Position numbers and translations under genes: made by a program. The notes beneath the pieces are model-generated. The model was not told where the DNA came from, ran no database searches, and worked only from the letters and a program-made list of their open reading frames with translations. From contig CAZWRV010000030.1 of the NCBI GenBank assembly GCA_964636325.1, positions 62 through 64,061 of the forward strand: DNA of 64,000 nt. Reading direction: 5' to 3'. Positions 4,618-63,200 of this stretch are shown here, piece by piece. Position 1 is the first letter of the stretch. Each line of letters begins with the position of its first letter. The stretch comes from an uncultured Victivallaceae bacterium (GTDB lineage Bacteria; Verrucomicrobiota; Lentisphaeria; Victivallales; GWF2-50-93).

Positions 4618-4772
4618 GTGGCTGTCATCTGCGGAAATCGCAGTTATTTCGATGAGAAACTCCACGGAGGGCGAAGCCGTGCTGAGCCGCGGTTGAGCTC
4701 GGCTCAACCCTCCGGAAGACGACAAAGCCGGCGACAAAACTAACGACAAAGATGTTCACGTTGCAGAGGAGC
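4618..4772 (+). repeat. R2 composite dispersed element, copy 2
   Basis: Module order: CTGCGGAAATCGCAG hairpin, GGAGGGCGAAGCCGTGCTGAGCCGC, GGTTGAGC-TCG-GCTCAACC hairpin, three 12-nt CGACAAAG-type units, then ATGTTCACGTTGCAGAGGAG. It ends 6 nt before the GH36-like gene ATG. Confidence 0.85.
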
Positions 4773-4777
4773 TTTGC

Positions 4778-7210
4778 ATGAAACTAGAATGTGACGGCAA
4801 GAGCGGCATCCGCGTATTGATACCCGGATGGACAGGCTTCCACCTGGAAGGCCTGCGCCCGGCGTTATGCGTCGACGGGAACAGGATTGCCTGCGATGAA
4901 AATGCGGAAGTCAAACGCCGTTCGGACAGATTCGCCGTCACATGGAAACTTGGCCCATGCAGTCTAGAGATGCGTGCGGAAGGCCAAGTCGGCGGCGGCA
5001 CGGTAGTCACTTCCACCCTTATGAACACCGGCGATAGCGAACTCCGCCTGGATGACGTAGCGTTATTGCAGGCTGACTGCTCGTTATCAAGGCCGACGTT
5101 TGGAACCGACCATTCCCGTGTCCGTATACTTGAGCAAGGCAACTACTGGGGGCGTGTTCGGCCGTTGACGCATTCCTCCGCGGTGACTAGCTCCCTCGAC
5201 GCCGCGGAACCGGGCGGAGCGCCGGCCCGGCAGGAGCGCGCCTCGGACCTTGTCTCCGTCGTGTATGACCAGGACAGCCGACAGGCTCTGCTTGTCGGAT
5301 TCCTGGCAAGCGAACGTTGGCTTGGCCGCATCCTGGCGAACACCGGCCTGGACGGCTCGGTTTCCACATGGCGCATCGGTTTCGACGCAGGAGAACTGCT
5401 TGTCGAACCGAATGAAAGGCTTGAACTGGAGCCCATAATTTTTCTGTCCGGATCGGATCCGTGGCGCCTGTTGATTCAATATGCCGAACAAGCGGCCTTG
5501 AGGCACAGGCCCTGCATGCCTGTAGGACAAGTGGTCTCATGGTGCAGCTGGTATCCATACCGCCTGGGAGTGACCGAGGAACGAATCCTGGCGGAAGCGC
5601 GGATCGCCGCCCGGCGGCTGAAACCCCTCGGGCTGAAAATAATCGAAGTGGATCTCGGATGGGAAGAGCGGAACCTGCCATGCTCGTTCACTGAAAACGA
5701 ACGTTTCCCACATGGTCTGAAATGGCTTTCCGAGCGGCTCCAGGAATTTGGTTTTGAACTGGGGGCATGGAAGGCACCCTACACGATTTCCGAGTTCGAC
5801 CCACTGGTGAAAGAGCATCCTGAATGGCTGGTTTCCGACGAGACGGGGAGCCCTCTGGCGTATTGGGAATGGTTCTGGAAGCCGCACGGAAAAGTTCATA
5901 TCCTGGATCTGACGCATCCGGGTGCCCTTCAATGGCTGCGGGAAAAAGTGCAGAGCCTGACCGACCGCGGCGTACGCTACTTGAAGTTCGACTTCATCGG
6001 CTGCGCGGCGGATGGAAAGGCCAAGCGACGGCACAATCCCCGCATCGTAATGGGGGCCGGCACTGAGGCGGCGCGCAAGGCTGCAAGCCTGATCCGGGAA
6101 GCGGCGCCGGAAGCGCTGATCCTCAATTGTGGCGGACCGGAAATGCCGGGCACGGGCCACTGGCCACTGCTTTACGCATGCAACGACACCGGGAACTCAG
6201 GTTTCATCGGCCATGGGACGCAGTCTCTCAATTATGAAGCCGTGGCCTGCCATCTCTTCAAGAACCGCCGCTGGGGGCTCATCCAGCCTTCCTGCCTAGT
6301 GGTCGGCCTTCCCGGAACTGTAGAAGATGCCCGGCTGAGGGCGACAATCGCATTCCTTGCCGGAGGGCAGATCGACATATCAGACACTCTGACCACGCTA
6401 CCGGAGGAGCGCTGGCAGATCCTGACCGCGACGCTGCCGCCCGCGCCCGCCAGCGCCAGGCCGGTAGACTTGTTTGAGCCACTGGCCATGGTCCACTTCG
6501 ACTACGAAGGCACATGCCGCGGACAGCAGGGGCAGGCCCAGATCTTGCGGGAGCATCCTCCGGCGTCGGTCTGGCATCTGCGCATCAACGCCGGATGGGA
6601 CGAATGGGATCTTGTCGGAATTTTCTGCTACAGCCCGGGCAGCTCTTCGCCAAAGCCGGAGATATGCCGCTACGTGATTCCTTTGACAAAGCTTGGAATC
6701 TCCGAAGCGCTGCCGCTTTGGGGCTACGAGTTCTGGTCAGGGCAATTCCTGGGAAATGTCCCCGGCAAGCGGCACAATGCCGACGCCTACGTCCATCCTG
6801 GAGACTATCAGGATCTGAAAGTCGGAGGCACATCTGGCATACTTGATGTGGCATTCTTCGGGCCCTGCGCCAAGCTTATCTGCCTGCGCCGTCCAAAACC
6901 CCATCCTTGGGTGCTGGGCACCTCCTTCCACCAGAGCTGCGGCCTGGAACTTGCAGATGTCGCATGGGATCCGGCGGCGCGGCGCCTAAGCGGCGAACTG
7001 CGGCGCCCCGAAGGCGAATCGGGAACGATAATTTTCTCTTCTGACGGCCATGTCCCATTAAGAGCCGAGGCGGACGGACGGGAGATACCAGTTCGGCCTG
7101 GCGCATCAGGCAGCTATGCCTTGGCGCTCATAGCCGCCCGCTCCCCGCTGGAGTGGGCGGTATTTTTCTCGGAAGACTTATTTGTTTCAAAGACAAAGGA
7201 GGAAATGTGA
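4778..7210 (+). CDS. Glycoside hydrolase, GH36/clan GH-D alpha-galactosidase-like
   Basis: 810-aa ORF. The TIM-barrel region WCSWYPY..IIEVDLGWE and RGVRYLKFDF resembles the K-x-D nucleophile block of melibiase-type enzymes. No signal peptide. GAGGAG Shine-Dalgarno 6 nt upstream. Confidence 0.7.
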   Translation: MKLECDGKSGIRVLIPGWTGFHLEGLRPALCVDGNRIACDENAEVKRRSDRFAVTWKLGPCSLEMRAEGQVGGGTVVTSTLMNTGDSELRLDDVALLQADCSLSRPTFGTDHSRVRILEQGNYWGRVRPLTHSSAVTSSLDAAEPGGAPARQERASDLVSVVYDQDSRQALLVGFLASERWLGRILANTGLDGSVSTWRIGFDAGELLVEPNERLELEPIIFLSGSDPWRLLIQYAEQAALRHRPCMPVGQVVSWCSWYPYRLGVTEERILAEARIAARRLKPLGLKIIEVDLGWEERNLPCSFTENERFPHGLKWLSERLQEFGFELGAWKAPYTISEFDPLVKEHPEWLVSDETGSPLAYWEWFWKPHGKVHILDLTHPGALQWLREKVQSLTDRGVRYLKFDFIGCAADGKAKRRHNPRIVMGAGTEAARKAASLIREAAPEALILNCGGPEMPGTGHWPLLYACNDTGNSGFIGHGTQSLNYEAVACHLFKNRRWGLIQPSCLVVGLPGTVEDARLRATIAFLAGGQIDISDTLTTLPEERWQILTATLPPAPASARPVDLFEPLAMVHFDYEGTCRGQQGQAQILREHPPASVWHLRINAGWDEWDLVGIFCYSPGSSSPKPEICRYVIPLTKLGISEALPLWGYEFWSGQFLGNVPGKRHNADAYVHPGDYQDLKVGGTSGILDVAFFGPCAKLICLRRPKPHPWVLGTSFHQSCGLELADVAWDPAARRLSGELRRPEGESGTIIFSSDGHVPLRAEADGREIPVRPGASGSYALALIAARSPLEWAVFFSEDLFVSKTKEEM

Positions 7211-8877: not shown

Positions 8878-8916
8878 ATAAATATTCAGTGAAAGGGCGT
8901 AGTTCACTGAATATTT
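8878..8916. repeat. R1 palindromic REP-like element, variant (TAAATATTCAGTGAA-AGGGCGTAG-TTCACTGAATATTTA)
   Basis: Same architecture and the same GGGCGTAG/CTACGCCC centre as the GTATGAATTCAGCAAA copies. Intergenic. Confidence 0.8.
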
Positions 8917-8948
8917 ACCGGCGGATGCCTATTACCCGCAGGAAAAAC

Positions 8949-10394
8949 TTAGTTCTTCCAAAGGGCGTTGAGAGATTTTACAGTCTCCTCGACTAGGACG
9001 TCGCCGGCCTCATGGCCGACCTCGTTGCAGTAGACGCATGCGCTGTAGCCCTGGCCCTCTTCGGCCTCGTCCGTGGGGAGGTAGCATATGTAGTCGTATC
9101 CCGCGCAGAGCTGGACGGTGAACGTCTGGACCGCCGGGCTCCGCGCCTGGATCCTTATCCCGAATTCTGAAAAGCATTCGAACGTATTTGTGGCGAAGGC
9201 GACATCGCCCACTCTGACGACATGCAGCTCCATGGGATAGGCCGTGTTTTCCTTCTGCTTCTCATAGCGTTCCAGAACCCTTCTGCAGCGCACCATCCTG
9301 GAATGGAGGATGGACTCCGACTCAAGATAGCTTTCCGAAACCTTTTTCTTCTCCAGCTCGCGGAGCCCCTTCCTCACCATGTCATATTCCTGCCTGGTCA
9401 CCTTTCTCGCGGGCAGCCTGACGGTCCTGACCAGATGGCCGGTCTCGGCCGAGCTTCTCATATCCTTCATGGCCGGCGGCAGGGCGTCGGCGAAGGCCGC
9501 GCATATCCTGTTTGCGATTTCCTGCCGCGGAGAGAGGCCTTTCAGCTCGAGCATGCGCTTCTCGGCGTTCTTGTTGAAGATGAGGTGGGGCGAGAGATCC
9601 CCGGAAGGGGCGCACTGCGGCAGCAGGAAGAGCTTCTTCCCGTATTTATTCCTGAGGCTCTGCCGGACCTCATGCCAGAAGTCCGCGGACATTTCGTTCA
9701 AGCACTCTGCCTGCTGGGACGGGCACGCGATGTTTACGACGGCGCCGGTAAGCCGTTTCGCAGTGTCGAAGGTGAAGAGGAAATGGGCGCTGTGGTCCGC
9801 ATATCCTTCGATCCCCTTGAATTTCGGATCGTTGGTATTGCCGTACATCCTGGCGTTCCTGTGGATGCTCATGCCCGCATGGTCGAAGTGGCCGGGCCTT
9901 TTGCTCAGATCGTCGGAATACAGGGCCCTTCTGCTGTGGCATGTCACGGCGTAGCCCATGGCCCAGGCGACATGGCCGGGCCTGCGCCCCTTCCAGCTCT
10001 CGGCGGCGGCCTCGGCGACGCGATCCGAGAAGAATTCAGAATATTCGTCCGGAGTCATGACTCCGTCCGGGACGGGCGGATACCATCGTCCCATCATATC
10101 CGGGGCGTCATGGGTATGCGTTGCGCTCAGGATCAGCCTGTCCGCCGGGAAATCTTCCGCGAGCTTCGCAAGCTTCCGCCTCACAAGCTCAAGGACATGA
10201 AGCGGGACATAGCAGGTGTCGCACGAAACCCAGATGAACGATCCGCCGTCCTTCCCCGAAGAGACCGCGAGCGCGGTGACAGTGAGCGGATCGTTCACCT
10301 TCGACGTTATCCGAGAGTGGAACTGCCCGAACAAGTTGACCGTTCTCCCTGGCGTCACATCCCGCGACGCCCAGCCGATTAGAATCTTTTCCAT
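8949..10394 (-). CDS. Hypothetical hydrolase, neutral/alkaline ceramidase N-terminal-domain-like
   Basis: 481 aa. The N-terminus ILIGWASRDVTPG...DPLTVTALAV...SATHTHDAPD follows the pattern I recall for ceramidase-like N-terminal domains (G.A..DITP ... ATHTHSGP). The family call is from memory only. Confidence 0.5.
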   Translation of the reverse strand: MEKILIGWASRDVTPGRTVNLFGQFHSRITSKVNDPLTVTALAVSSGKDGGSFIWVSCDTCYVPLHVLELVRRKLAKLAEDFPADRLILSATHTHDAPDMMGRWYPPVPDGVMTPDEYSEFFSDRVAEAAAESWKGRRPGHVAWAMGYAVTCHSRRALYSDDLSKRPGHFDHAGMSIHRNARMYGNTNDPKFKGIEGYADHSAHFLFTFDTAKRLTGAVVNIACPSQQAECLNEMSADFWHEVRQSLRNKYGKKLFLLPQCAPSGDLSPHLIFNKNAEKRMLELKGLSPRQEIANRICAAFADALPPAMKDMRSSAETGHLVRTVRLPARKVTRQEYDMVRKGLRELEKKKVSESYLESESILHSRMVRCRRVLERYEKQKENTAYPMELHVVRVGDVAFATNTFECFSEFGIRIQARSPAVQTFTVQLCAGYDYICYLPTDEAEEGQGYSACVYCNEVGHEAGDVLVEETVKSLNALWKN

Positions 10395-10410
10395 CTTAAC
10401 ACCTTCTGAT

Positions 10411-10440
10411 TACACTCATTTAACGTGAAAATCTACATTA
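10411..10440. repeat. Solo terminal repeat of the R3 MITE-like family
   Basis: TACACTCATTTAACGTGAAAATCTACATTA matches the left ends of R3 copies (TATACTCATTTGGCGTGGAAATTGACATTTTA; TATACTCTTTTAGCGTGAAAATTTACATTTTG) at about 25/32 positions. It lies 17 nt upstream of the 8949-10394 gene start. Confidence 0.5.
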
Positions 10441-10682
10441 TCGTCGCTAATTGAACGCTGCGCGATTGAGAGGACAAGAGTAAAAAATTGCGATTGATGA
10501 AACTCCGTTGCTTTTTCGTGCGGCCCTGCGCGCTTCCCGGCCTGCCCCGGAATAAGATCTCAATATGCCGGTCTTCGCCTTGAAAACCGCGTTTGCCGCA
10601 CTACAATACACACCCCGCGTATGCGGAACCAAAATTTGCAATCATCTCGACATATAAAAAATAGCAACGAAAGGTGGCTGCG

Positions 10683-11861
10683 ATGTTCGGAAACACATTC
10701 GGAAGGCTTTTCAGGATTACGTGCTGCGGCGAGTCCTACTCTGGAGGGTTCAGGAAGCACCTCCCCGTTCCGAAGGAGCTCTACGGCGGCCTGATGACCA
10801 TCGTCGACGGCGTGCCGGCCGGCATTAAGATCACCGCGGAGATGGTCCAGCACGAGCTCGACAAGCGCAAGCCCGGCCAGACGCCGCTAGATTCTCCTAG
10901 GAAGGAAATTGACAAAGTCTACATATTCTCCGGTGTCATGGAGGGCGACATAACCTCGGGCGCGCCTGTGGGAATGGTCATCCCCAACGTGGACATCCAG
11001 GACGTCCACATCGGCCAGTACCGCAGCTACAAGGACGAGATACGCCCCGGCCACGCCGAATACGGCTATTTCAAGAAATACGGCCGGCATGCGGACTGGG
11101 TCGGCGCCGGACGCGCCAGCGGTCGCGAGACCGCAAGCCGCGTCGCCGGCGGGGCCGTAGCCAAGGCCATACTCGACCGCATGGGCATCGACGTGATCGC
11201 ATACACCGTGGAGTCCAACGGCATCAAGGCGAAGCCCTTGAGCTACGTGGATGCGAAGAAGAACTACAGGAAGAACGATATCAACTGCCCAGACCTGGAG
11301 ATAGCCCCGAAAATGATCGAGGACGTCCTTAAGATCAAGGATGAAGGCGACACCGCCGCCGGAATCGTCGAGTGCGTCGCAGTCGGAGTCCCCGCCGGCC
11401 TCGGCGAACCGGTATTCGACAAGCTCAGCGCCATGCTGGCGCATGGGATATGTTCGATCGGCGCCATCAAGGGAATCGAGTTCGGAGCCGGCTTCGAACA
11501 TGCCCGGATGAAAGGCTCGCAGTCGAACGACAGGGCATACGTCGAAAAAAAGACCGGGCGCGTCCGGTTCAAGACCAACAATTCCGGAGGCATCCTCGGC
11601 GGGATTTCCAACGGGGAGGAGATACGGATCCGCTGCGCCGTCAAAGCGACCCCGACCGTCTCCGTCCCGCAGGAGACAGTCAACGTCGACAAGATGAAGG
11701 ACGTGATCCTCAAGCCCATCACGCGCAGGGATCCCAGCCTTCTGCCGAGGATATATCCAGTCATCGAGGCCATGGTCCGCTGCGTCCTCGTCGACGCCAT
11801 CTACATGGCCGAGGCCTACTGGAAGGTCGCCGAAGTCGAGAAGAAATGGCTGAAGATATGA
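10683..11861 (+). CDS. aroC: Chorismate synthase
   Basis: [23 protein letters not shown]-terminus and full-length collinear family pattern. Start set at MFGNTF rather than the MAAM extension. Confidence 0.95.
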
Positions 11862-14823: not shown

Positions 14824-14896
14824 CAAAATGTTTATGCGCATATTTTGGACTTCGAACGCTCAACGCCGAATGAAGCTGAACAATCGGATTTAACAA

Positions 14897-14987
14897 TTCA
14901 GATTTCCGGCGCCCCTCGCTGAAAAGCCACAAGAGTATTTTCCAGCATTTCCAGCCGATTGATAGGTGCGGGTCAGGAAATCTGAAG
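14897..14987. repeat. R4 element (about 92 bp, terminal inverted repeats TTCAGATTTCC / GGAAATCTGAA)
   Basis: About 80% identical to 37262-37353. It starts immediately after the stop codon of the 14988-16568 gene. Confidence 0.75.
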
Positions 14988-16568
14988 CTACTTGATCTTC
15001 AGTGCGTCCCATCGCTTCTGGCCGCCGCCTATTGGAAGCTTGTAGCTGCCGCTCATGGTTGCGCCGGGGTTCATCATCTTGGAGCGGTTGTAGTAGACGA
15101 CTTCCCCGTTGACCACCTGCTTCTTGTTCCATGCGCGCAACTCCTCGACGTATTTGCCTTCGGGGGATAGGACTTCCTGCGGGACGAACTCGCGCTTGCC
15201 GCCTGGTGGGATCCATTCGAACTTCATGGTGATTATCCCGCAGACCTCGGTCAGGGAAATCTTTATGTCATATTTCTTTCCTGCCTCCAGGATGACCTTC
15301 TGGCTGTATTCTGTCGGAGCCTGCTCCTTCCATGCGTCTATAAGGACGCTGTCGCCGAGCCAGAAACGCGAACCGTCGTCCGCTGTTATGAAGAAAGTGT
15401 ATTCTCCGCCAACCTTTGGAATCAGCTGCCCTGCCCAGATCATCGATATTAGATCGGCCGTAAACTCCTCGTTCGGCTTCTTGGCCCCCCACTCGAAGTC
15501 CAGTTCAGGGTCGATCTTTTCGATGGTCTTCCCTCTAAAGGTCATCCATTCGAAATATGAGGCATAAAGCCCTCCTGCCCAAGCGCCGGTTACAGCTATG
15601 TCGCTGTCGTTGTATTCAGGATGGAAGGCCTTGGCCATGACCTTGCAGGGGCGGTTGAGGGTGATCGGCTCCTTGTAGAGCGGGGAGTCCTCGTTGGGCT
15701 CATCGCCGTTGAGCGTATATCGGATTTCCGCGTCAAGGGTTGGACAGCTTATGACGAACGGCTTCGACGGCTCGAAAATTCCGCCGTCGCACTCGAATAC
15801 CGGCGTGGCGGCCGCGGGATAAAGAATCCTGTCAGCTATCCTGGCGACCCTCTTCGCCTCCAGTTCCTGGAGCCTTTTCTCGTAAGCCTCGCGGTCGGCC
15901 TTGATCCATATCCTGCCGTCGACCAGGAGGAGCTCGTCATGCTTCTTGAGGAACTCGTCGGTCACGGCGGCGCCGAATTCGTCGAGCGTCCCCTTCACCG
16001 GTTCCTTGGAATAGTAGAAGTCGGTGTATTCCTGGATCAGGGCCGCCCTCTTCTCCTTGTCTCCGACCTTCGCGAAGAGGAGTGCGACCTCCTTGGAATT
16101 GATGATCGGATACTGCTGGAAAATCTCCATCTGGAGGTTTTCCCTGTATTCCAGAAGCTTGGCGTTGTATTCGTTCTTCTTCTTCCTGAGGTAGGCCTCC
16201 CTCTCCTTCTTGTTTTCCTCGGGAAAATATTTCAGCAAGTCCTTCCTGCCGAGGTCGTCGTTCAGTATCTTGGTGGAGCCGATCTGGACGAACCTTCCGT
16301 CAACGACGCCATTGTATTTACCCTTGGCGGTCTTCCTTCCGTTCATATAGGACAATGTGACCTCGGCGCCGAGCTGCGCCTGCGGAAAGGCCTCGTCGAA
16401 GTCCTTGTTGGCCTTGTCGGAGTCGAACTCAGGATACGTGGCCATCTTCTCGTCGTAGGCCTTCTGGCCGGCGGGCGAAAGGCTCTTGCTGGTGACGGCG
16501 ACCACGGAAGAGCAGGCGAAGACGGCGGCCGAGGCCGCCAAGGCGTGAACAAGTCTTAAATGTGGCAT
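14988..16568 (-). CDS. Secreted PA14-domain protein with chitobiase/hexosaminidase-C-like (FN3-associated) module
   Basis: Signal peptide. Central IRYTLNGDEPNEDSPLY module. C-terminal GLYASYFEW...FTADLISMIWAGQLIP..GGEYTFFITADDGSRFWLGD matches the PA14 pattern. Confidence 0.8.
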   Translation of the reverse strand: MPHLRLVHALAASAAVFACSSVVAVTSKSLSPAGQKAYDEKMATYPEFDSDKANKDFDEAFPQAQLGAEVTLSYMNGRKTAKGKYNGVVDGRFVQIGSTKILNDDLGRKDLLKYFPEENKKEREAYLRKKKNEYNAKLLEYRENLQMEIFQQYPIINSKEVALLFAKVGDKEKRAALIQEYTDFYYSKEPVKGTLDEFGAAVTDEFLKKHDELLLVDGRIWIKADREAYEKRLQELEAKRVARIADRILYPAAATPVFECDGGIFEPSKPFVISCPTLDAEIRYTLNGDEPNEDSPLYKEPITLNRPCKVMAKAFHPEYNDSDIAVTGAWAGGLYASYFEWMTFRGKTIEKIDPELDFEWGAKKPNEEFTADLISMIWAGQLIPKVGGEYTFFITADDGSRFWLGDSVLIDAWKEQAPTEYSQKVILEAGKKYDIKISLTEVCGIITMKFEWIPPGGKREFVPQEVLSPEGKYVEELRAWNKKQVVNGEVVYYNRSKMMNPGATMSGSYKLPIGGGQKRWDALKIK

Positions 16569-16667: not shown

Positions 16668-16945
16668 TTATACTCTTTTAGCGTGAAAATTTACATTTTG
16701 ACGAGCAAGATTTGGGATTGGATTTTTTCGTTCCGACCGAGCGGCGACATGAATGTCGTCCGAGGAAGGAACGGAAAAATACGGCCCAAAGAAGCTCGCC
16801 GCAAGGCGGTTGCGGTCTTTCGGTTTTGCTCCGCCCCCTTCGAGAACCTTCGACACCTCGGTATCGGCGATCTCTCAGAATGCGAAGCAAATTCCAAAAT
16901 CCCAGCAATCAAAATGTAAATTTTTCAGCCTATAAGGAGTATATA
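16668..16945 (+). mobile_element. R3 MITE-like element, copy 1 (about 275 bp, about 35-bp terminal inverted repeats, no ORF)
   Basis: Collinear with 34659-34935 at about 85% identity. The ends TATACTCTTTTAGCGTGAAAATTTACATTTTGA and TCAAAATGTAAATTTTTCAGCCTATAAGGAGTATA are inverted repeats of each other. The many short overlapping track ORFs here are not protein-like. Confidence 0.65.
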
Positions 16946-16987: not shown

Positions 16988-19048
16988 TCACCCCAGGAAC
17001 TGTGCGATGACCTGCTGGAGGGTTGCCAGCTTGAAGGGCTTCGAGATATGGGCGTCCATGCCGCACTTCAGGCAGAGGCGCTTGTCCTCCTCCATCGCGT
17101 TCGCGGTCATGGCGACGATAGGGATCCTGCGCCCCGTGCCGGCTTCGAGCTTGCGAATCTCCTCGGTCGTCCTGTATCCGTCGAGGACCGGCATTTCGCA
17201 GTCCATGAAGACTATGTCGAACTGGCCGTCCTTGAACTTCTTCAGCGCCTCTTCGCCGTTGACGGCGATGGTGACCTTCACGCCGAGACGGTCGAGGAAG
17301 ATCTGCTCCATCTTCCTGTTCACGGGATCGTCCTCAGCGACGAGGGCCCTTATCTCCTTCGAGACCGGCTGCGCCTCCGCGGCGGGCTTCTCCTCCATCT
17401 TCCTTGCCTTCTTCTGGCGCATATCCCTTACGGTCTGTTCGTCCGAGAGACCGAAAGGCAGTTCGAAGACGAATTCGGAGCCCTTGCCCTTCTCGCTCCT
17501 GGCCGATATCCGCCCGCCCATCTGCTCGATCAGGTGCTTGCAGACCGCGAGGCCGAGGTTGACCGCGCCGAACTTGCGCGTGACGTCCACCTGCTCCTTG
17601 GTGAAGTCGAAGATGCGGTCCAGCTTCTCCGCGGAGATGCCCAGGCCCGTGTCCTTGACGGTGAAACGCATCCTCGCCTTCTGGCCGTCCTTCTCAAGGC
17701 ACACGAGGGAGACGGAGACGCCGCCGGCCTCGGTGAACTTGAGCCCGTTGGAGACGAGGACATACATAATCTGGCTTATCCTGGCCGGATCTCCGGAAAG
17801 GAAGACGGGCGCGCCGCACATATCCAGCTCCAGGCGGAGCCCCTTCTCCTTGGCCTTGACCGAAAGCATGTCGAGTGTCTCGTTCAGCACCTCCGCCAGA
17901 TCGAAAGGAACGGTCTTTATCTCGATTTTCCCGGTCTCTACCGCCTCGAAGTCCCTGATGCCGTCGATGACGTTCACGAGGACCTGGCTGGACTGGGCGA
18001 TGGTCTCCGCGTATTCCCTCTGCTTCGGGTCGAGCTTGGTCTCGAGGAGGAGGTCCGACATCCCGCAGATGCCGGTCATCGGCGTCCTGAGCTCATGGCT
18101 CATGCTAGCGAGGAAGTTGCTCTTGGCCTGGCTTCCAATCTCGGCCTGGATGGCGAGGTTTTTGACGGTCTGTATCAGCTCTTCGATCCTGTTCACCATG
18201 GATTCGGCGGACCTGCCGATGAAGCTCAGCTCGTCGAACTTCAGCCGTTCCGTGTCGAGCACGGCGTCCTTGCGCTCGGCGTATGCCTGGAAATAGCCGA
18301 GGAGCACGTCCATCTGCGTCTTGAGGTTCTTGGAGAACTTGACGGAGAACAGTATCGCCACGATGGCCAGGAATACGGAGATGCACATTATCAGCGCGAA
18401 GTCGGTGATGAGGTCTATCTTGAGCGCCAGGACGGAGATGGATCTTCCAACGTTGTAGCCGCTGTCGCCGAATTCTGCGCATATTATCCAGTTCCACTTC
18501 GGGTTCCGATACTTTTCGCCGTAGTATATGATGTCCTTGCCCGAGACGTTGTAGTTCGCGAGGGCGCGGCCGCCGCCCTCCTTCGCGTCCTTGATCAGCT
18601 TCAGGTAGGGTGCGGAGAGGCTCTCGTTGTTGGCGGCCTGTATCCTCTTGTTGGCCAGGGTCTTGTAGAGAGGATGGTAGAGCAGGACGCCTTCCTCGGT
18701 GAAGACGGAGACGTTCACATAGTTGTCGGAGCCGAACCTTATCCCGTTGAGCTGCTGGACTATCTCGCTCTGTACCTTGGAAAGCGCGCCGCCCTCCGGC
18801 TGCGGGGCGTCGGGATCCTCCCCGAGGTATCCGCGCTGGTAGTCGATGAACTTGACGACGTTGGCGACCTCGTTCTTTAGGAGGTTCAGCTTGAAGTCCT
18901 CGGTGAAGCTGTCGGAGAGCAGCCTCCTGTCCGTATAGGCCTGGTAGCGCAGGTAGAACAGGAACCCAGTGAAGATGACCGAGATGATGACGATGGTGCC
19001 TATCCACGAATAAAGGCTGGTCCTTACTATGCTGGTGTTCTTTTGCAC
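16988..19048 (-). CDS. Hybrid sensor histidine kinase / response regulator (periplasmic Cache-like sensor, HisKA, HATPase_c, REC)
   Basis: Two TM segments flank an extracytoplasmic domain. H-box [10 protein letters not shown] boxes, and a C-terminal receiver ([15 protein letters not shown], ..KPF). No HPt domain. Confidence 0.9.
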
Positions 19049-19640: not shown

Positions 19641-19681
19641 GTATGAATTCAGCAAAGGGGCGTAGTTTGCCGAATTCATAC
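19641..19681. repeat. R1 palindromic REP-like element flanked by an 8-bp direct repeat
   Basis: GTATGAATTCAGCAAAGGGGCGTAGTTTGCCGAATTCATAC. CGCGGGCT occurs immediately on both sides (19633-19640 and 19682-19689). Confidence 0.85.
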
Positions 19682-33960: not shown

Positions 33961-34434
33961 ATGAAAAAGCCCCCCGCAGCAGCAAGAATACGTCCAGCCC
34001 GCAAGGGGGAGGCCGAGATCATTTCCCGGATATTGAACAAATACGCCAGGCGCAAGCTGCTCCTGCCAAGGACGGCCGACGACATACTCAGGCACATCTC
34101 CAACTTCTGCGTCGCAGTGTCCGGCGGGGAAATCGTCGGCTGCTGCGCCACAAGGAGCTACGGGAGGGGACTTTTCGAAGTAAGATCCCTGGCCGTAGTC
34201 CCCGGATTCACCGGCCAGGGCATCGGCAGCAGGCTCGTGAAGCACTGCGTCCGCAGAATCGGACGGCAGCCCGGCACCAGGATATTCGCCCTGACCTACA
34301 GGGCCGACCTTTTCAGGCGGCTCGGATTCAGGGACGTGGAAAAGGAGATGTTCCCCGAGAAGATCTGGAGCGACTGCTCCATCTGCCCCAAGCGGTCCCG
34401 CTGCGACGAGGAGGCGTTGCTGCTGGAGATCTGA
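33961..34434 (+). CDS. GNAT-family N-acetyltransferase (ArgA C-terminal-like)
   Basis: 157 aa with the acetyl-CoA-binding motif VVPGFTGQGIGSRLV (Q/RxxGxG/A). Confidence 0.75.
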   Translation: MKKPPAAARIRPARKGEAEIISRILNKYARRKLLLPRTADDILRHISNFCVAVSGGEIVGCCATRSYGRGLFEVRSLAVVPGFTGQGIGSRLVKHCVRRIGRQPGTRIFALTYRADLFRRLGFRDVEKEMFPEKIWSDCSICPKRSRCDEEALLLEI

Positions 34435-34521: not shown

Positions 34522-34560
34522 GTGAATTCAGCGAACTACGCCCTTTTGCTGAATTCATAC
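34522..34560. repeat. R1 palindromic REP-like element
   Basis: GTGAATTCAGCGAACTACGCCCTTTTGCTGAATTCATAC. Confidence 0.85.
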
Positions 34561-34600
34561 TTAAAGACACAAGACTAAGAGGTGCGACAAATCCGCCTAG

Positions 34601-34655
34601 GCGGACGCCCTCAACCGAGTTTCTGATCAACAAAACTGCGAATCTCGCAGAGCGG
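34601..34655 (-). repeat. R2 element, partial copy (5' arm only)
   Basis: ..GCCCTCAACCGAGTTTCTGATCAACAAAACTGCGAATCTCGCAGAGCGG aligns with 37880-37934 (GCCCTCCATCGAGTTTCTGATCGACAGAACTGCAAATTTCGCAGATGG). Confidence 0.7.
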
Positions 34656-34658
34656 CAT

Positions 34659-34935
34659 TTATACTCATTTGGCGTGGAAATTGACATTTTACGAGCGAGA
34701 TTTGGAATTGGATTTTTTTGTTCCGACCGAGCGGCGACATGAATCTCGTCCGAGGAAGGAACGGAAAAATACGGCCCAAAGATACTCGTCCGCCTTGGCG
34801 GATTGCGGTCTTTCGGTTTTGCCTCGCACCCTTCGAGAGCCTTCGATACCTCGGTATCGGCGGCCTCCCAGAATACGGAGCGATTCCCGAAATCTCCGCA
34901 ATCAAAATGCTCAATTTTCAGCCTAAAGGAGCATA
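34659..34935 (+). mobile_element. R3 MITE-like element, copy 2
   Basis: Collinear with 16668-16945. Terminal inverted repeats TATACTCATTTGGCGTGGAAATTGACATTTTA / TCAAAATGCTCAATTTTCAGCCTAAAGGAGCATAT. Confidence 0.65.
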
Positions 34936-34997: not shown

Positions 34998-35816
34998 TCA
35001 AACTCCTGCCTTCCGCAGGTGCTCCACGGAACGCTTCAGAGCCTTCCGGATGTTTTCCGGAGTGGCGGCTTCGCCCAGCGCGGCCGGCCCCTCTATTTCG
35101 ATCGACGAATTTCCTTTGAATCCGCCTTCGTCCAAGATATCGAATATCTTCTTGAAGTCGATCGTCCCGTCGCCTAGAGCGGGGAAGAAGTTCTCTAGAT
35201 ATCCCTTGCGGCTGTCCTTGACGTGGAGGTGCGCCACATGCTTCACGAGCCTGCGCAGTTCAGCGTCGCCGTCTATCCCCTGGGTGTAGTAGTAGATGTT
35301 GGCCGTGTCGAAATTGAGCATGATGCTCGGATGCCCGACGTCCATGAGCGTCCAGAGCGAGTAGATGGAGTTGTGCCCCATCGGAGGATGCGTCTCCATG
35401 GCCACGGTCAGACCGCACTTCTCCGCGGCTCCGCCGATCTCCTTGAGGGCAGGTATGGCCTTCATCGGATCCTGGCCGCTGCCGGTGACAAGCGTGGAGG
35501 CCCCGAGCATCCGCCCGACGTCAAGGCAGAGCTTCAAAATCTGCCGCTGCTCATCCTTCTCGAAGTCCACGAAGCACGAGACCGTGCTTATCTTCACACC
35601 TTTAGCCTCGGCCATGCCCCTGACCGACTCCGCCCTGCGCGCAATCTCCTTCCTCGGAATCTCAAGAGGCTTCTCCCCGGGTTTCGCGATGCTCCACAGA
35701 TCCCCCCCGAGGTTCAAGTCAAGGTTGGAAAGGCCCGCCTTCTTCAGCTCGTCAAGCGCCCCCTCGTATCCAAACATGGAAAGCAGAGGGCTGAACACCT
35801 CGATCACATGCTTCAT
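34998..35816 (-). CDS. Sugar phosphate isomerase/epimerase (xylose isomerase-like TIM barrel)
   Basis: 272 aa. AP-endonuclease-2/TIM-barrel pattern (ETHPP..., HLHVKD, ...EIEGP). Confidence 0.8.
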   Translation of the reverse strand: MKHVIEVFSPLLSMFGYEGALDELKKAGLSNLDLNLGGDLWSIAKPGEKPLEIPRKEIARRAESVRGMAEAKGVKISTVSCFVDFEKDEQRQILKLCLDVGRMLGASTLVTGSGQDPMKAIPALKEIGGAAEKCGLTVAMETHPPMGHNSIYSLWTLMDVGHPSIMLNFDTANIYYYTQGIDGDAELRRLVKHVAHLHVKDSRKGYLENFFPALGDGTIDFKKIFDILDEGGFKGNSSIEIEGPAALGEAATPENIRKALKRSVEHLRKAGV

Positions 35817-37196: not shown

Positions 37197-37261
37197 GAAC
37201 AGACATCCCGAGCCATGCGAAAAGAGATGTGGTGAGATACCGACTCCTGAAGGTATTTCAG

Positions 37262-37353
37262 TTCAGATTTCCGGCGCCCCGCCCTGAAAAACCACAAGGT
37301 TATTCCCCCCCCGTTTCTTGCATTTCCAAAGTAGCGGGTCAGGAAATCTGAAG
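37262..37353. repeat. R4 element (TTCAGATTTCC...GGAAATCTGAAG)
   Basis: About 80% identical to 14897-14987. The mutT stop codon (37339-37341) and its last 4 codons lie inside the right terminal repeat. Confidence 0.75.
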
Positions 37354-37763: not shown

Positions 37764-37936
37764 CTCCTCTGAAACTCGCCCATCTTTGTCGCGAACTTTG
37801 TCGTTATCTTTGTCGTTATTTTTGTCGTTATTTTTGTCGTCTTCCGAAGGGTTGAGCCAAGCTCAACCGCGGCTCAGCACGGCTTCGCCCTCCATCGAGT
37901 TTCTGATCGACAGAACTGCAAATTTCGCAGATGGCC
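37764..37936 (-). repeat. R2 composite dispersed element, copy 3 (most complete; five 12-nt units)
   Basis: In element orientation: CTGCGAAATTTGCAG hairpin, GATCAGAAACTCGATGGAGGGCGAAGCCGTGCTGAGCCGC, GGTTGAGC-TTG-GCTCAACC, CTTCGGAAGACGAC, (AAAAATAACGAC)x2, AAAGATAACGAC, AAAGTTCGCGAC, AAAGATGGGCGAGTTTCAGAGGAGG. Confidence 0.85.
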
Positions 37937-38084: not shown

Positions 38085-38125
38085 GTATGAATTCAGCAAA
38101 CTACGCCCTTTTGCTGAATTCATAC
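38085..38125. repeat. R1 palindromic REP-like element
   Basis: GTATGAATTCAGCAAACTACGCCCTTTTGCTGAATTCATAC, followed by a partial extra arm GCTGAGTTCAGCA. Confidence 0.85.
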
Positions 38126-38302
38126 TGCTGAGTTCAGCATAACGGGAAGCCTGAATCATCACCCTTCAACTTCGAGCACAGCCCCCTCTCCATCGGTAAG
38201 GCTGAACCGGACTGCCACTTCCTCACCGGCGAAGTCGTGCTGGACTGGCTTGCCATCGCGGCGGACTTCGAACTTCGCGCTGCATGCGGCGTATAACGTC
38301 TG

Positions 38303-39324: not shown

Positions 39325-39365
39325 GTAAATATTCAGTGAACTACGACCTTTCACTGAATATTTAC
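39325..39365. repeat. R1 variant element (GTAAATATTCAGTGAA-CTACGACC-TTTCACTGAATATTTAC)
   Basis: Palindromic, with the same centre as the other R1 copies. Confidence 0.8.
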
Positions 39366-39471: not shown

Positions 39472-39512
39472 GTGTGAGTTCAGCAAAAGGGCGTAGTTTG
39501 CTGAATTCATAC
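39472..39512. repeat. R1 palindromic REP-like element
   Basis: GTGTGAGTTCAGCAAAAGGGCGTAGTTTGCTGAATTCATAC. Confidence 0.8.
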
Positions 39513-39740
39513 CTTGATCGGCTCGCCCGAGTCCAGCTTCTTCTTCACGTCGGTGGTCTCCGACCACGGACACGCCATTTCGACAATCCCAGTGTTGCCG
39601 TCACGCATCATCGAGAGCTTGCCCTCGTCGACCGGACCTCCGTCGCGCTCCGCCTTGGGCTGTCGCGGATAGAAATGCTTGCGCGGCACCCCGGGCGCGA
39701 ACAGACGGAATATTTCAGCCCCGCCTACGAACTTTTCCGC
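39507..39740 (-). pseudogene. Possible 3' remnant of a truncated gene
   Basis: The coding-like frame NFQPKAEKFVGGAEIFRLFAPGVPRKHFYPRQPKAERDGGPVDEGKLSMMRDGNTGIVEMACPWSETTDVKKKLDSGEPIKV* is open from a TAA inside the solo R3 end. Only an internal GTG start is available (track ORF 39507-39689). The stop lies inside an R1 copy. Confidence 0.3.
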
Positions 39741-39764
39741 TTTAGGCTGAAAATTTTACATTTC
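39741..39764. repeat. Solo R3 terminal repeat (inverted orientation)
   Basis: TTTAGGCTGAAAATTTTACATTTC matches the reverse complement of the R3 right ends (AAAATGTAAATTTTTCAGCCTA). Confidence 0.5.
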
Positions 39765-39831
39765 TCTTACGGAGCGACTTGGAAAATCTTTCTGCCGAAA
39801 AGATAGTTTGCACGCGCCGCGCGCAAACTAC

Positions 39832-39872
39832 CTGCGCGCCGCAAGGGCGCATTTTTCCCGCAGGGAAAAACC
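39832..39872 (+). repeat. R5 double-hairpin element
   Basis: CTGCGCGCCGCAAGGGCGCATTTTTCCCGCAGGGAAAAACC is nearly identical to 46983-47023. The hairpins are GCGCC-GCAAG-GGCGC and TTCCC-GCA-GGGAA. Confidence 0.75.
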
Positions 39873-39955
39873 TAGTATCTTACTGGACAATATATAATGC
39901 CACCGCCCTGTGGGGGGATTGAATATATGCAATCTCAGGTAAAGAAAAGATGCCT

Positions 39956-46867: not shown

Positions 46868-46982
46868 CTTTATTTCTCCCTTGATTCTATTCGGTGCAAC
46901 TTGGAAAACGTTTTTATCAAAGTATGCCGCGTTCGCCTGTAGCGGCAGTGGCGACTTTTGCGAAGTCGCCATACTCAAGCTC

Positions 46983-47023
46983 CTGCGCGCCGCAAGGGCG
47001 CCTTTTTCCCGCAGGGAATAACC
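46983..47023 (+). repeat. R5 double-hairpin element
   Basis: CTGCGCGCCGCAAGGGCGCCTTTTTCCCGCAGGGAATAACC. It is preceded by another hairpin, GGCGACTT-TTGCG-AAGTCGCC. Confidence 0.75.
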
Positions 47024-47132
47024 TGGCTTTTTACGGCTAACCGCGCCAATATTTTGGGGCTTCCGCCGGAAATCCGGTATAAGCCTTCCGCGAGCTGCTT
47101 CGTTATCTCTTGTCCGTTATCCGGCATCCCCC

Positions 47133-48044
47133 TCACACTATCCTCGTCCATTTCGGACGAATCTCGCCGAGGAAATTCATAAGCCTTAACCCGTTTGCGT
47201 TCAGCCACTTGCGATGTTCACGGCATTCCGGGACAAGATCCGCCACCTGCTTCCAGAACTCGGAGCCGTGATCGGCCCTTCGGAGATGGGAGAGCTCGTG
47301 CGCCACCACATATTCGCATACCTTCTCCGGCGCCATCACAAGCCTCCAGTTGAGGCTTATCCTGCGGTTCCGCTTCGAGCAGGTCCCCCAGCTAGTGCGA
47401 AGATCCTTCAGCCAGAGCGAGACGCTTCCGCCTGGCGCGGCCGGCTCAAGGCGCAACCATATCTGCCTGATCAGTTCAGCGCTCCGCCTGAAATACCATG
47501 ATGCCAGCATGGAGGCCATAAGGCGTTCCTGCTCCCGGGCGTCAAGACGATCCAGGCCGGACTTGAAGATCGCTATCCGTCCACCGTCTGCCGCCACGGA
47601 ATGCGAAAAGCCGGTCCCCTTCTCCAGGCGGAGCTCCACCATCTCCCCGCGGAATGGGACCATTACCGTCCCTCCTGCGAGAATCGGCGAAAGGCTGATG
47701 CGGCTCCCTCGGTATTCGGCGAGCTTCCTTCGTATCCAGGCGCCGTGGCGCTCAAGGAAGCGGGCCACCTCGCCTTCGCCGCAGCCGCAGGGAACTCTTA
47801 CGCTTACGCCGCCCGCTCCCACTGAGAGCGAAAGCCTTCTGAACCTTGTGTCCCGTAGGTATGAAATTTCGCAGTTGTCGATGTGAAATGTCTCCTGAAA
47901 CTCACATATCTCTGTCGGTATCTTTGTCGCGAACTTTCTCGTCTTCCGGAGGGTTGAGCCAAGCGCCGCGCCGTAGTCCGACGAAGACGGGAGTAAAATG
48001 ATTTCATGGCGGGCTTGCTGAGGCCGCCATGAAATCATCCTCAA
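47133..48044 (-). CDS. YgjP/DUF45-like M48-type zinc metallopeptidase (start uncertain)
   Basis: HELSHL (HExxH) and WGTCS motifs. The family core begins near [21 protein letters not shown]. The N-terminal roughly 45 codons (TTG start) are a translation of an R2 repeat copy. Confidence 0.7.
47891..47972 (-). repeat. R2 composite dispersed element, copy 4 (degenerate, inside the ygjP-like ORF 5' end)
   Basis: In element orientation: GGCGCGGCGCTTGGCTCAACCCTCCGGAAGACGAGAAAGTTCGCGACAAAGATACCGACAGAGATATGTGAGTTTCAGGAGA. The left arm of the GGTTGAGC hairpin is lost. Confidence 0.7.
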
Positions 48045-49519: not shown

Positions 49520-49531
49520 GCTGTTGAATAA

Positions 49532-49571
49532 TAAAAATTCAGCGAGAGGGCGTAGTTCACTGAATATTTAC
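49532..49571. repeat. R1 variant element
   Basis: TAAAAATTCAGCGAGAGGGCGTAGTTCACTGAATATTTAC, flanked by TTGAATA on both sides (49524-49530 and 49573-49579). Confidence 0.7.
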
Positions 49572-49881: not shown

Positions 49882-49958
49882 GGGGCAGTAGCTCAGTTGG
49901 CTAGAGCGGTACGTTCGCAACGTACAGGCCAGGGGTTCGAATCCCCTCTGCTCCACCA
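49882..49958 (+). tRNA. tRNA-Ala (anticodon CGC), CCA encoded
   Basis: Hand-folded cloverleaf: acceptor GGGGCAG/CTGCTCC with the G3:U70 Ala identity pair, D arm GCTC-AGTTGGCTA-GAGC, anticodon arm GTACG-TTCGCAA-CGTAC, T arm AGGGG-TTCGAAT-CCCCT, then ACCA. Confidence 0.95.
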
Positions 49959-50103
49959 TTTATAACTACCTGCGAATGAATGAGTTAACTCTCATACTTG
50001 TAGAATCTTGCATACCCCTCCTTTACCCCTGATTTCAGACGTTTTCACGTCCAAAAAGCAAGCATAAAGGAAGCACCATTTTTCCCGCCATACTCCCTCT
50101 AGT

Positions 50104-50156
50104 CTGAATTATTCACAAACTTTTTTACATGCAAAAAACGCTTGTGAATAATTCAG
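50104..50156 (-). terminator. Long hairpin 3' of the hydrolase operon (terminator candidate / repeat)
   Basis: CTGAATTATTCACAA ... TTGTGAATAATTCAG (perfect 15-bp arms) with an inner TTTTTT-ACATGC-AAAAAA palindrome. It lies 9 nt beyond the stop at 50165. Confidence 0.45.
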
Positions 50157-50164
50157 GTTAGTCA

Positions 50165-53100
50165 TCATTCAATGCCGAACTCGAAGAGGCGGTAGTCATG
50201 GCGGCGAACAGGGCAGCTCAATACTCCGTCCTTCCACTCGAACTTGCCGTCGGGATCGTTGGCGCGGCGCTGCTCTACTGGCAGATCATCCGGGTTCTCA
50301 TCGGGCTTCATGTCTGCGACCGCCGACTCGATATTGTCATATGTCCCATTTGATTCGCTCAGTTTCGGCTTCGCGGTCGTCGTCACGTCGTCCCTGAAAT
50401 ATGTCAAAATATCCTGATCGGCCTGCCTTGCTGTGATTTTTGCAGGGGATACGTCTCCGAACCCCATTGCCATAGGATCAAGCTTCACGGAGGCATTGAA
50501 GCGTTCCGCGCCGATGTTGACAAGAATGACAACACATTTCCCAGGACATTTCCATGCCGAAACAAGGAGGTTCTTGTGGGTGTGTGACGCGAGCCCATGA
50601 AGATTCCAGTAGGGGACAAATTCTGTGTCGGGCATGTTGATCCGCGTCTCCTTGAGGACTGATTCGGGAAAGGGGCGAGCGATGTCGTGGACGGCAAGGT
50701 TGGCCGCGTAGGCGCGTTCCTGGCGGAATATCCAAGATTCATACTTCTTCTTCTCTATCGGGCCGGAATACCCGAGCCAGATAGAGGGGATGCCCCACTT
50801 CTCCGAATTCATGAAACGTATTCGGTCCGGAGGCCAGTGGTCGATGAAATCGTCCTGGCTGCAAGGATGGGAATATTTATCCTCGCCGTCCAATATTGAT
50901 GTGAAGAAAGAATGATAGGGGATGAAATACGTATGTGTTGTGTGCGCAGTCAGGCGAGGCGGATAGATTCCATGGCCGACGCAGATCTGGTATGCGCGTT
51001 TTATGCGTTCCCTGAATCCCCTGAACTCAAAGCCAGGCTGGACATGACCGTCGGCAAGCGCATATGTGTGGGGCCCACCTGCCTTGGTGTGCGGACGGTT
51101 CCAGCAGTCATCCATATAAAAACCTTGTATGAATTTGTCCGTATGTTCGATCCATTCGTTCCAAGCCCATGAGATATAGTCCAAGAACTCCGGGGTGTAA
51201 TATAGGTAGTCGTCGACATTCGGATACCCTGGATACCAAGCTTCCGCCCATTCGCGCATCTCTTTTGGAAAACCGACCCAGTTCAAGTCCCAGTAGAGTC
51301 CGGGAACCTTCTCATATTCATCCTGAGCGGGTTCGCGCCCAAGTTCCTTCCGCCATTCCGCCTTGAGCCGTGAAAACAGGATTTTCAACCCTGCCGCTTT
51401 CTTCGTCAACCCTTCGCCGTCAATCCTTCGCCGCACCGCATCCCAGTCATCCTCGGGATAGGCATGAAATACTGTGGATCTGTCTCCTTTCAGGTTGTTG
51501 CCGGTGAAGGTGTCGGGCATTACCCCGCCGCCGCGTCGCCAGTATTTGGTCAACGGGCGGACCGGCACAGGATGGAGGCCGAATTCGAAGGCCCGCAAAT
51601 CGAAGTTAACAGGTTCCGAGATGATGTTCAGCACAAGAGTAACAACTCCGTCCCCGCGTTCAACGCTGACAGCCGCATTCTCAATGCTCTGAGTCCATCC
51701 CTGGTCGTTTTCAGCGAACCATGCCATGCCTCTTTTGTCGCCAACCAGAGACATGTATGGGATGAAGCTGCCGCGAAGTTCTGGCGGACGTTCGACTATC
51801 TTGTCGTCGTTGCTGCGGAAGACAATGCCTGTGCCTTCGGGCACTGTACCAATGTGGACTACTTTCGGATTACGGAAATCACGCTGACCGCTCCACCAGT
51901 GGAACATTCCGGCATTTTCCGACCGGAATGGGATATGCATTGCAAGCCTCCCTATCCGCGCAGTTTTCCCGGCCTCAGCAGCTTTCATGGCCAGGCGGAA
52001 CCAGATCATGCCGTCGAATTCGATGCTCGCCTCGGTTTCGAAACTGACCTCTGCCGCAGAAACAGTTCCGCGCACATCGACTCTTGCCTCCTTTGCCGAG
52101 ACGATCTCGAATTTACCATTCTCCATGGGGAGAGGTTTTCCGTCAAGTAGTATCTTGATCGGACCTCCGAGGATATCTTCGCCTGCAGAGACAATATTCT
52201 CCGGGAGTCCGACGGAACTGAAGACAATCTCGCGCCCCCAGACCCTGACTGTTCGATCCCCGGCCTGAATGGGCGTCCACGGCGGCGGCACTTTGTCCGA
52301 CAATCCAGCCCTGCATTTCCACCATGGCGGCTGTTTGCGGACAATCGCCTGTTCTGCATTACCAATCACCTTGCCGTCGGTATTCTTTACTTCGGCCTTG
52401 AGAACATATTTTGCGAATTCCAGAACCGGCGTCCGGAACTCGACCATGGCCAGCTTGCGATCATTCATTGAAGCTGTTCCTCGGCCGACAGGCTTAGTGT
52501 CGCCTTCCTTGAAAAGCGCGGCCGAAACATAGGCGGCCGAGGCGTAGTCCTTCATGAGAGCTGTGATTTTCACCTTGACCAGGCCGGTCGCACCGTTGCA
52601 GTCAACGTCCATGTCCATATCCGGTAGAGGCAGCAATGGTTTGCGATGATCGCAGATACGCACCAGATTGCGGAGTTCGCTGCGGGAGAGGGCCCGTCGG
52701 TATACCCTGAAGTCATCAATCGCCGAGCGTGGAGCAGGAAGATTCAGCTTGTCCCAATACATCATGGTTCCGAATCTGAGCGCGTCCGGAAGCGACTTGA
52801 GCCACCATTCCGGAACCGGTTTTTCTCCCGTGGTGTTATTGTTCGGATACATCGCGGCCACAATCCGCCATTCTCCATGCGTGGCGTCGAAGTTTAGATC
52901 ATGCTTCTCGCCGTTCACATAGGTTGAGAACAGGCTTTTCTCGTCCCAGGTGATTGTGATGTGCGTCCAAATACCAGGGGTAAGCTGGGCCGGATTGTGC
53001 AGCGTCTCGTTCAAATCCTTGTTGATGTTGAACTCAAGGAGCCAGCCTTTCCGGCTGAAGCGGGAGTAATAAGAATCGTCAGGATAGACACCGTCGATCT

Positions 53101-56481: not shown

Positions 56482-56486
56482 TGGCC

Positions 56487-60056: not shown

Positions 60057-60437
60057 GTTTCCCCCTTTCTTTATTTAATATCCTAAGGCGGGCTTCGCCC
60101 GCAACCCAAAATTCAATGAATTCCATAGACACATGCATGCTTTTGTGATAGAAGTTTTTAAGAAAGTATCCTAATTTCTTTGGCAATGAATCATATGAGT
60201 GCCCTCGCATAATCTGCCCCGTCAAATAAAGATTTTCTTTGATGGCTTGGACAAGGCCTCGGGATGCCGTAGAATCATACCGGACCGGAAGCCAAGCCCA
60301 AGCGAGAGCATGATTCAATAAGCTATGGAATCCGATCATAAACGCCACCTTTTTCCACTGCCTACGTTCAAATCAGGCATGGCATATTGCTTTTGGCATC
60401 CCAAGGATTAAACTCACTGTATTCAAAGATGCTTGAT

Positions 60438-63172: not shown

Positions 63173-63200
63173 GGCGGTGAAAACCTCCCTTTTTCCATTT

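Follow-up and report, generated by a model that had tools for sequence, protein, structure and literature searches.

A short non-coding repeat with terminal inverted repeats and two strand-specific hairpin arms in Victivallales, probably a non-autonomous mobile element

Introduction

[quoted passage not shown] REPINs are palindromes of about 70-110 bp, in which REP units (~20-40 nt) with a GTAG head are arranged in inverted pairs, and they are associated with a RAYT transposase. For prokaryotic MITEs in general, a total length under ~500 bp has been used as a criterion (PMC10969869). The Correia elements (CREE/NEMIS) of Neisseria have TA ends, terminal inverted repeats, promoters at their junctions, and transcripts that form hairpins (PMC2649163, PMC10969869). 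ERIC and SPRITE-type repeats are imperfect palindromes in transcribed intergenic DNA, which can alter mRNA stability or termination (PMC10969869).

The window analyzed here, a stretch of 64,000 nucleotides from an uncultured Victivallaceae bacterium, carries two copies of an element that shares traits with all of these systems. The Correia element is, by analogy, its nearest counterpart in behaviour. Both are short, non-coding, and intergenic with terminal inverted repeats of ~26-33 bp and TA at both ends, both have stable hairpins when co-transcribed, which for the Victivallales element is a prediction, and in both a terminal -10-like TATA makes promoter-like sites at the junctions. In addition, swapped terminal-repeat variants in one copy (L003a, see below) resemble the reported inversion of Correia elements. 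There is, however, no sequence similarity between the two; the Victivallales element is about twice as long, belongs to another phylum (Lentisphaerota), and differs in its two long self-complementary, strand-specific arms and its variable central hairpin.

With RUP and Nezha the element has the terminal inverted repeats and the TA ends in common, the TA being inseparable from the terminus. It differs from them in a paralogous empty-site comparison that needs no extra TA, and an IS630-like partner was not found in the searches described below. Compared to ERIC and SPRITE-type repeats, it has a much greater length and well-defined terminal repeats, and owing to its two-fold symmetry a polymerase meets the same structure from either side, while terminator-like hairpins called near the centre of some copies are a shared trait. 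Like REPINs and REPs, it consists of nested palindromes that fold as a single strand and are interspersed between genes; in contrast to these, its unit comprises ~135 nt with 33-bp repeats and ends in TATACTC, and there is no GTAG head at the termini. A Y1 transposase was not found in the window.

Copies and remnants in the window

The two copies are collinear and show 86.4% identity over 280 nt (blastn, E=8e-89), or about 84% in a comparison of all copies. In the alignments, similarity starts with TATACTC and stops with GAGTATA, and the flanks are unrelated. The initial annotation had described two collinear copies of about 85% identity bounded by these inverted repeats and accompanied by two solo ends. 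All of this was confirmed, although the true ends lie 1-2 bases further inside, and the second solo end is a weaker remnant than the first. The following features were delimited, with the strand given where one applies.

16669-16943, unstranded: copy 1, full element, TATACTC...GAGTATA
16669-16701, unstranded: copy 1, left terminal inverted repeat (helix 1)
16702-16798, plus strand: copy 1, arm L, ~97-nt hairpin with GTTCC...GGAAC and CGACAT-GA-ATGTCG
16799-16809, unstranded: copy 1, central GC hairpin CCGC-AAG-GCGG (helix 4)
16810-16908, minus strand: copy 1, arm R, ~99-nt hairpin, diverged inverted homologue of arm L
16909-16943, unstranded: copy 1, right terminal inverted repeat
34660-34935, unstranded: copy 2, full element
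34660-34691: copy 2, left repeat
34692-34788: copy 2, arm L
34789-34802: copy 2, central hairpin
34803-34901: copy 2, arm R
34902-34935: copy 2, right repeat
10410-10441, plus strand: solo left-end remnant TACACTCATTTAACGTGAAAATCTACATT, 25/29 identical to the left end, terminus included
39740-39788, minus strand: decayed right-end remnant, consensus positions 221-267, nhmmer E=0.003, weaker than 10410-10441

The terminal inverted repeats comprise 33-35 nt and match at 82-86% within each window copy. They are retained in all five full copies known (see below), in which helix 1 is paired in 96% of cells. The core motif TTAGSSTGAAAATTKACATTTT occurs four times in the window, compared to 0.00 occurrences expected from shuffles. 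A search with nhmmer and the alignment of copies revealed no more copies in the window beyond these copies and remnants. The remnant at 39740-39788 is without the last 7 nt of the element, the terminal GAGTATA.

Upstream of the minus-strand gene 8949-10394, at 16 nt from its start codon, lies the solo end at 10410-10441. The possibility that this end belongs to an otherwise wholly decayed copy spanning the 264-bp intergenic region was rejected, as positions 10445-10690 score no better than shuffles. A function as promoter of the adjacent gene is likewise unconvincing, with a -10 at ~16 nt from the ATG and a poor -35.

Copy 1 is flanked by the 3' end of a gene for a hybrid histidine kinase (16988-19048, minus) and by the 5' end of one for a PA14-domain protein (14988-16568, minus). 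Copy 2 lies between the convergent genes of a GNAT acetyltransferase (33961-34434, plus) and a xylose-isomerase-like TIM-barrel protein (34998-35816, minus). Ordinary chromosomal genes are found across the window according to Pfam, namely gyrA, rpoD, argG, aroC, purL, folP, dxr, and accA; the encoded AccA has no relative closer than 80% identity. From its protein matches, the window organism belongs to the Victivallales (Lentisphaerota).

Coding capacity and searches for known RNA families

Several frames of either strand contain long open stretches, and the indels, which vary between copies, preserve no frame. A search with the six-frame translation of the consensus against 5.8 billion proteins returned no match. 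On these grounds a coding element was rejected, in agreement with the statement of the initial annotation that no frame is protein-like. That annotation had also named a known ncRNA family as something to be checked for; in a search with Rfam over the whole window at gathering thresholds, the only match was a tRNA, and a permissive search over copy 1 gave a best E>6, so that no Rfam family matched the element. Distant blastn searches against plasmids and phages yielded no match to the element, and neither did scans of viral contigs with two internal patterns and one terminal-repeat pattern. In one public assembly, three short ORFs have been annotated inside or adjoining copies.

Predicted fold and strand-specific arms

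A ~135-nt unit, comprising a terminal repeat and a hairpin arm, is duplicated in inverted orientation to make up the element, with a short variable hairpin where the two units join. The left half and the reverse-complemented right half are 54% identical overall, with near-identical terminal repeats. In the predicted single-strand fold, a ~30-bp stem formed by the terminal repeats closes arm L (~97 nt), a short GC hairpin, and arm R (~99 nt). Folding z-scores range from -5.4 to -9.1 compared to dinucleotide shuffles on either strand.

Over the whole structure, standard pairs account for 93.6% of cells. Pairs that are changed on both sides number 12, compared to 5.3+/-1.7 in column shuffles (0/500 reach 12) and to 0-3 in slid-partner controls, and divergence is 0.126 in paired columns vs 0.276 in unpaired ones. 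The central hairpin of 9-14 nt varies in sequence and length while its pairing is kept, with three of its four pairs changed on both sides. A hairpin that differs between copies and still pairs at this position had been noted before, as had the GTTCC...GGAAC and CGACAT/ATGTCG stems, which are indeed conserved and both fall within the ~97-nt arm L. The covariation counts are based on six sequences including five full copies, which makes for thin statistics. Taken as they are, the alignments provide moderate evidence that the fold of the element has been maintained. Alternatively, the compensatory changes could result from templated repair within palindromes.

The two-fold symmetry, the strand specificity of the arms, and the conservation of arm L were overlooked in the initial annotation. 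While the whole element folds similarly on both strands in the alignment (-105.5 vs -106.3 kcal/mol), the arms do not. Arm L is more stable on the plus strand by 6-17 kcal/mol in 6/6 copies, and arm R on the minus strand by 8-19 kcal/mol in 5/5 copies. In copy 1, for example, arm L reaches -48.0 kcal/mol on the plus strand vs -38.5 on the minus strand, and arm R reaches -45.9 kcal/mol on the minus strand vs -26.9 on the plus strand. Thus, each arm folds better on the strand that is read inward from its nearer end, and the arms are strand-specific.

The same preference is visible in the non-standard pairs. Arm L on the plus strand has 30 G.U cells and no A.C cell, and arm R on the minus strand has 21 G.U and 6 A.C cells; on the inward-read strands, there are about nine majority G.U positions vs about one A.C position. 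Among polymorphic stem transitions, 12 events lead to G.U vs 5 to A.C. The direction of the asymmetry is the same with DNA energy parameters, so that RNA is neither proven nor necessary as an explanation. As the arm interiors have strongly diverged and both keep this property, we think that it reflects selection rather than inheritance alone, bearing in mind that the copies share ancestry and that the numbers are small.

Within the element, conservation is highest in arm L, with 6% divergence in the window pair compared to 15-17% in the terminal repeats and arm R. The window pair is the only pair of copies found without a search pattern and is, hence, unbiased in this respect. For a MITE that is purely selfish, it is unusual that arm L should be better conserved than the terminal repeats, a hint that the interior has a function.

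Promoter- and terminator-like signals

An outward-facing sigma-70-like -35/-10 pair had been proposed for each terminal repeat. Copy 1 does contain the underlying string TGTAAA-N17-AGTATA, but its resemblance to the sigma-70 consensus is poor, and no promoter was called in the terminal repeats of either window copy. Elsewhere, a good outward match was obtained only in L009 at 8493-8464 (ATGACA-18-TATAGT, 10/12), two bases of which come from the flank. In the inward direction, the terminal TATACT matches five of the six bases of a -10 hexamer, and an inward promoter with a flank-supplied -35 was called in two copies. Terminator-like hairpins near the centre were called in 3/10 copy-strands. The window organism encodes a standard RpoD. 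In sum, the promoter and terminator signals of the element, as predicted from the letters, are hints only.

Copies in other contigs and hosts

Copies beyond the window were obtained from pattern scans of genomes and metagenomes, after which the LigA contigs of one metagenome-assembled genome (MAG), DYRX01, were retrieved for the full locus. In the genome scan, an internal 21-mer had at least two matches, both in this MAG, which is labelled Victivallis vadensis. Its LigA has no relative of >68% identity in the protein collection and its contigs have a GC content of ~49%; the species label appears doubtful. The scan of metagenomes yielded at least two further contigs with the element.

In all, there are at least five full copies of 271-278 bp, two in the window and three elsewhere, and at least two truncated copies outside the window. 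Each copy is located in a different gene neighbourhood and has identical sharp boundaries. The possibility of a segmental duplication, which the initial annotation had set down for checking, is excluded by the unrelated flanks and by the further copies in other genomes and metagenomes. Its description of a short repeat that is non-coding, interspersed, and bounded by terminal inverted repeats holds across many unrelated contexts and at least two divergent host lineages.

In the lineage with 49% GC, ligA is flanked by two copies. One of the truncated copies, L009 10926-11142, stops at consensus position 214, where an AT-rich insertion interrupts it. The adjoining AT-rich DNA at L009 11143-11753 contains small ORFs without Pfam match, one of which runs off the contig end, and looks like a later insertion into the second element copy beside ligA. 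In L002, a fragment at 2779-2869 consists of arm L alone with 91-92% identity and lies directly 3' of the stop codon of a sugar-transferase gene; the sequence after it has a tRNA-like look, and a tRNA was not found there.

Sequence details at two other copies are of note. In L005, the stop codon (558-560) of a gene for a VapC-type PIN-domain protein (558-974, minus) is provided by the last three bases of the element. This copy alone ends with TTTA instead of TATA, by which TAT becomes the stop codon TAA on the gene strand, possibly a mutation that restored a stop after insertion. In copy a of L003/L009, the diagnostic dinucleotides of the terminal repeats (left GCG, right GGC type; alignment columns 14-16 and 264-265) are swapped relative to the interior, which suggests an inversion by recombination between the repeats.

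The window has a GC content of 56.7%, the contigs with non-window copies have 48-50%, and the element itself has 45-50%. L013, a contig from the same sample as the other assembly of the window organism, has 56.6% GC and two intergenic repeats in common with the window. One of these is the short repeat CAATTCAGATTTCCGGCGCCCC..., found at 14894-14986 and 37259-37352 of the window and at 4757-4840 and 8904-8931 of L013, which helped to tie L013 to the window organism. Based on the matching GC content and the shared intergenic repeats, L013 very likely belongs to this organism. Its LigA shares only 66% identity with the one encoded between two element copies in the 49%-GC lineage, and its ligA locus is without the element. 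Between the two lineages, copies share 80-90% identity, and the most similar pair of all comes from different hosts, copy 2 of the window and the copy in L004, with 90% vs 84% for the window pair. At such a host distance, neutral intergenic DNA would be unalignable; the element has therefore either spread horizontally or is strongly constrained. It is present in two divergent Victivallales lineages, and the identity between its copies greatly exceeds the background of the hosts.

The ligA loci of two relatives do not carry the element, nor does the accA-GNAT locus of another; these hosts are too divergent for a base-exact empty site. Exact-protein look-ups of the flanking genes led to only one other assembly of the window organism, which is fragmented at repeats. 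Short-read contigs of carrier organisms end 30-59 nt inside the element at 4/4 boundaries (L001, L006, and both ends of L011), as is expected of a multi-copy repeat.

Target site and proposed mode of spread

The element has several properties of a MITE, namely a length of 271-278 bp, terminal inverted repeats, no coding capacity, and interspersed copies with identical boundaries. We consider it to be a non-autonomous transposable element of this type, with a probability of roughly 0.7. As such, it represents a MITE family that has not been described before; it is of a known kind and otherwise an ordinary mobile-element relic. Full-text searches of the literature gave no account of such an element in Victivallis or Lentisphaerae, and a MITE survey of ~183,000 prokaryotic genomes leaves the phylum unmentioned.

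The element would most likely be moved by a transposase encoded elsewhere in the genome that binds to the 33-bp terminal repeats. An autonomous partner of such a MITE would have a size of 1-2 kb, be bounded by TATACTCATTTAGCGTGAAAATTGACATTTTGA, and encode the transposase. This enzyme is probably of the TA-target IS630/Tc1 kind, judged solely from the TA at both ends. A transposase was not detected in the window with Pfam, and an insertion sequence with matching ends was found neither in the window nor among the genome and metagenome matches listed, nor with the terminal-repeat pattern in viral contigs. Direct repeats of 2-10 bp outside the conserved termini were found at none of the copies. 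TA is present at 10/10 ends, and only TA or TATA fits a target duplication, which is indistinguishable from the terminal repeat. Copy 2 appears to interrupt another repeat of the window between TCAGAGR and AATGCC, with a far-side match of only 6-7 nt; as a paralogous comparison on this short match, the interruption fits an insertion without extra TA.

Given that the arms have their best folds on the strands read inward from their respective ends, a transcript entering the element from either side would first form a strong ~97-nt hairpin. The element may thus end or stabilize neighbouring transcripts or mark them for processing in either orientation of insertion. If it is a MITE, it suggests that elements of this type are active in Lentisphaerota and pass from one lineage to another even where base composition differs greatly. 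Short-read assemblies break at the element, and it is liable to be miscalled as small genes. With its symmetrical, strand-specific arms and the conserved arm L, it is a candidate for a MITE that has been adapted to influence adjacent transcripts in both orientations.

Alternative explanations

A stronger version of such a role is that the element is a horizontally spreading RNA-structure cassette with two-fold symmetry, in which selection acts on each half as a strand-specific hairpin RNA of ~100 nt. The halves would act either as two convergent small RNAs or as an orientation-independent module for transcript ends, termination, or insulation. In this reading, arm L would form the functional core, given its conservation above that of the terminal repeats and its survival as a lone fragment at one locus. 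This is unlikely. The form with two convergent small RNAs, which is compatible with mobility and is the main rival of the MITE reading, would have inward-directed hairpins of ~100 nt ending at the central hairpin, with the terminal repeats as promoter regions, and we regard it as unlikely, too. Every copy has arms that are 6-19 kcal/mol better on the inward-read strand, with G.U favoured over A.C there (about 9 vs 1 positions, 12 vs 5 events), yet DNA parameters reproduce this asymmetry, and its mirrored form may descend from an ancestral end unit and not from selection. TATACT provides 5/6 of an inward -10, and a promoter was called in two copies with a -35 from the flank, but no complete inward promoter lies inside the element, so that the -35 must come from wherever a copy has landed. 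Terminator-like hairpins were called near the centre (3/10 copy-strands), but the T-runs 3' of the central hairpin are interrupted. Arm L as the best conserved part, surviving alone in L002 at 91-92% identity, speaks for such RNAs, whereas the gene context and orientation that vary between copies and the absence of a matching Rfam family speak against them.

It is very unlikely that the element is a palindrome mobilized as single-stranded DNA in a REPIN/RAYT- or IS200/IS605-like manner, by a Y1/HUH enzyme that reads strand-specific hairpins. The nested-palindrome architecture, the strand specificity of hairpins also under DNA parameters, and the lack of a detected target duplication beyond TA would fit, and REP-like hairpins of a different family, with a CGTAG loop, are abundant in the window, so that the machinery may exist in this genome. 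With ~275 bp and true 33-bp terminal inverted repeats, however, the element is much larger than REPINs, its arms favour opposite strands whereas the end hairpins of IS200/IS605 elements sit on one strand, and neither a RAYT nor a TnpA gene is found in the window. The chances are slimmer still for a non-mobile regulatory palindrome of the host, such as a bidirectional terminator or a protein-binding site, whose copies arose by recombination or selection. Copy 2 is located between convergent genes, copy 1 and several others lie just 3' of a gene end, the structure is conserved, and terminator-like hairpins are called near the centre. On the other hand, sharp identical boundaries in unrelated loci, the existence of solo ends and truncated copies, the absence from orthologous ligA loci of relatives, and a cross-host identity far above background are at odds with it, and one copy (L009) is situated between divergent genes, where a terminator has no role. 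Finally, that only two full copies are found in the window would be in line with a segmental duplication or chance similarity, whose probability is negligible and which is refuted by the unrelated flanks, the copies in other genomes and metagenomes, and the blastn E=8e-89.

Other repeats and features of the window

A second repeat family in the window consists of ~40-nt hairpins with the pattern TTCAGYRA-NNGGSCGTAGTT-YRCYGAA and a conserved asymmetric loop, AAAGGGCGTAGTT. It has seven matches vs none expected, plus one cut by the window end:

8878-8918
19641-19681
34523-34561
38085-38128
39325-39365
39472-39512
49531-49571
63965-64000 (cut by the window end)

These hairpins occur in both orientations and mostly just 3' of gene ends. 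Their stems show compensatory differences (GTGAA/TTCAC vs GCAAA/TTTGC), and the family looks REP-like.

A third, composite intergenic repeat consists of a hairpin (GGTTGAGCYNGGCTCAACC), followed by 12-nt tandem units (GACAAAGATAAC-like) and a terminator-like hairpin (CTGCGAnnnTCGCAG) with TTTTG after it. It is located at the following positions:

1-113
4626-4775
37765-37933
47886-47964
34606-34658 (partial)

The partial copy lies directly left of copy 2 of the element, which, from this arrangement, seems to have landed inside a copy of the third repeat.

A tRNA at 49882-49955 is followed by a stretch of lower GC content (49-54%) at 50000-64000. This stretch encodes very large predicted glycoside hydrolases, GH123-like and GH20-like (1398, 722, and 1189 aa), as well as a GntR regulator, and may be an acquired glycan-utilization island. 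A 53-nt direct repeat of 89% identity, at 39831-39883 and 46982-47034, contains two small GC hairpins (CCTGCGCGCCGCAAGGGCGC...CCCGCAGGG).
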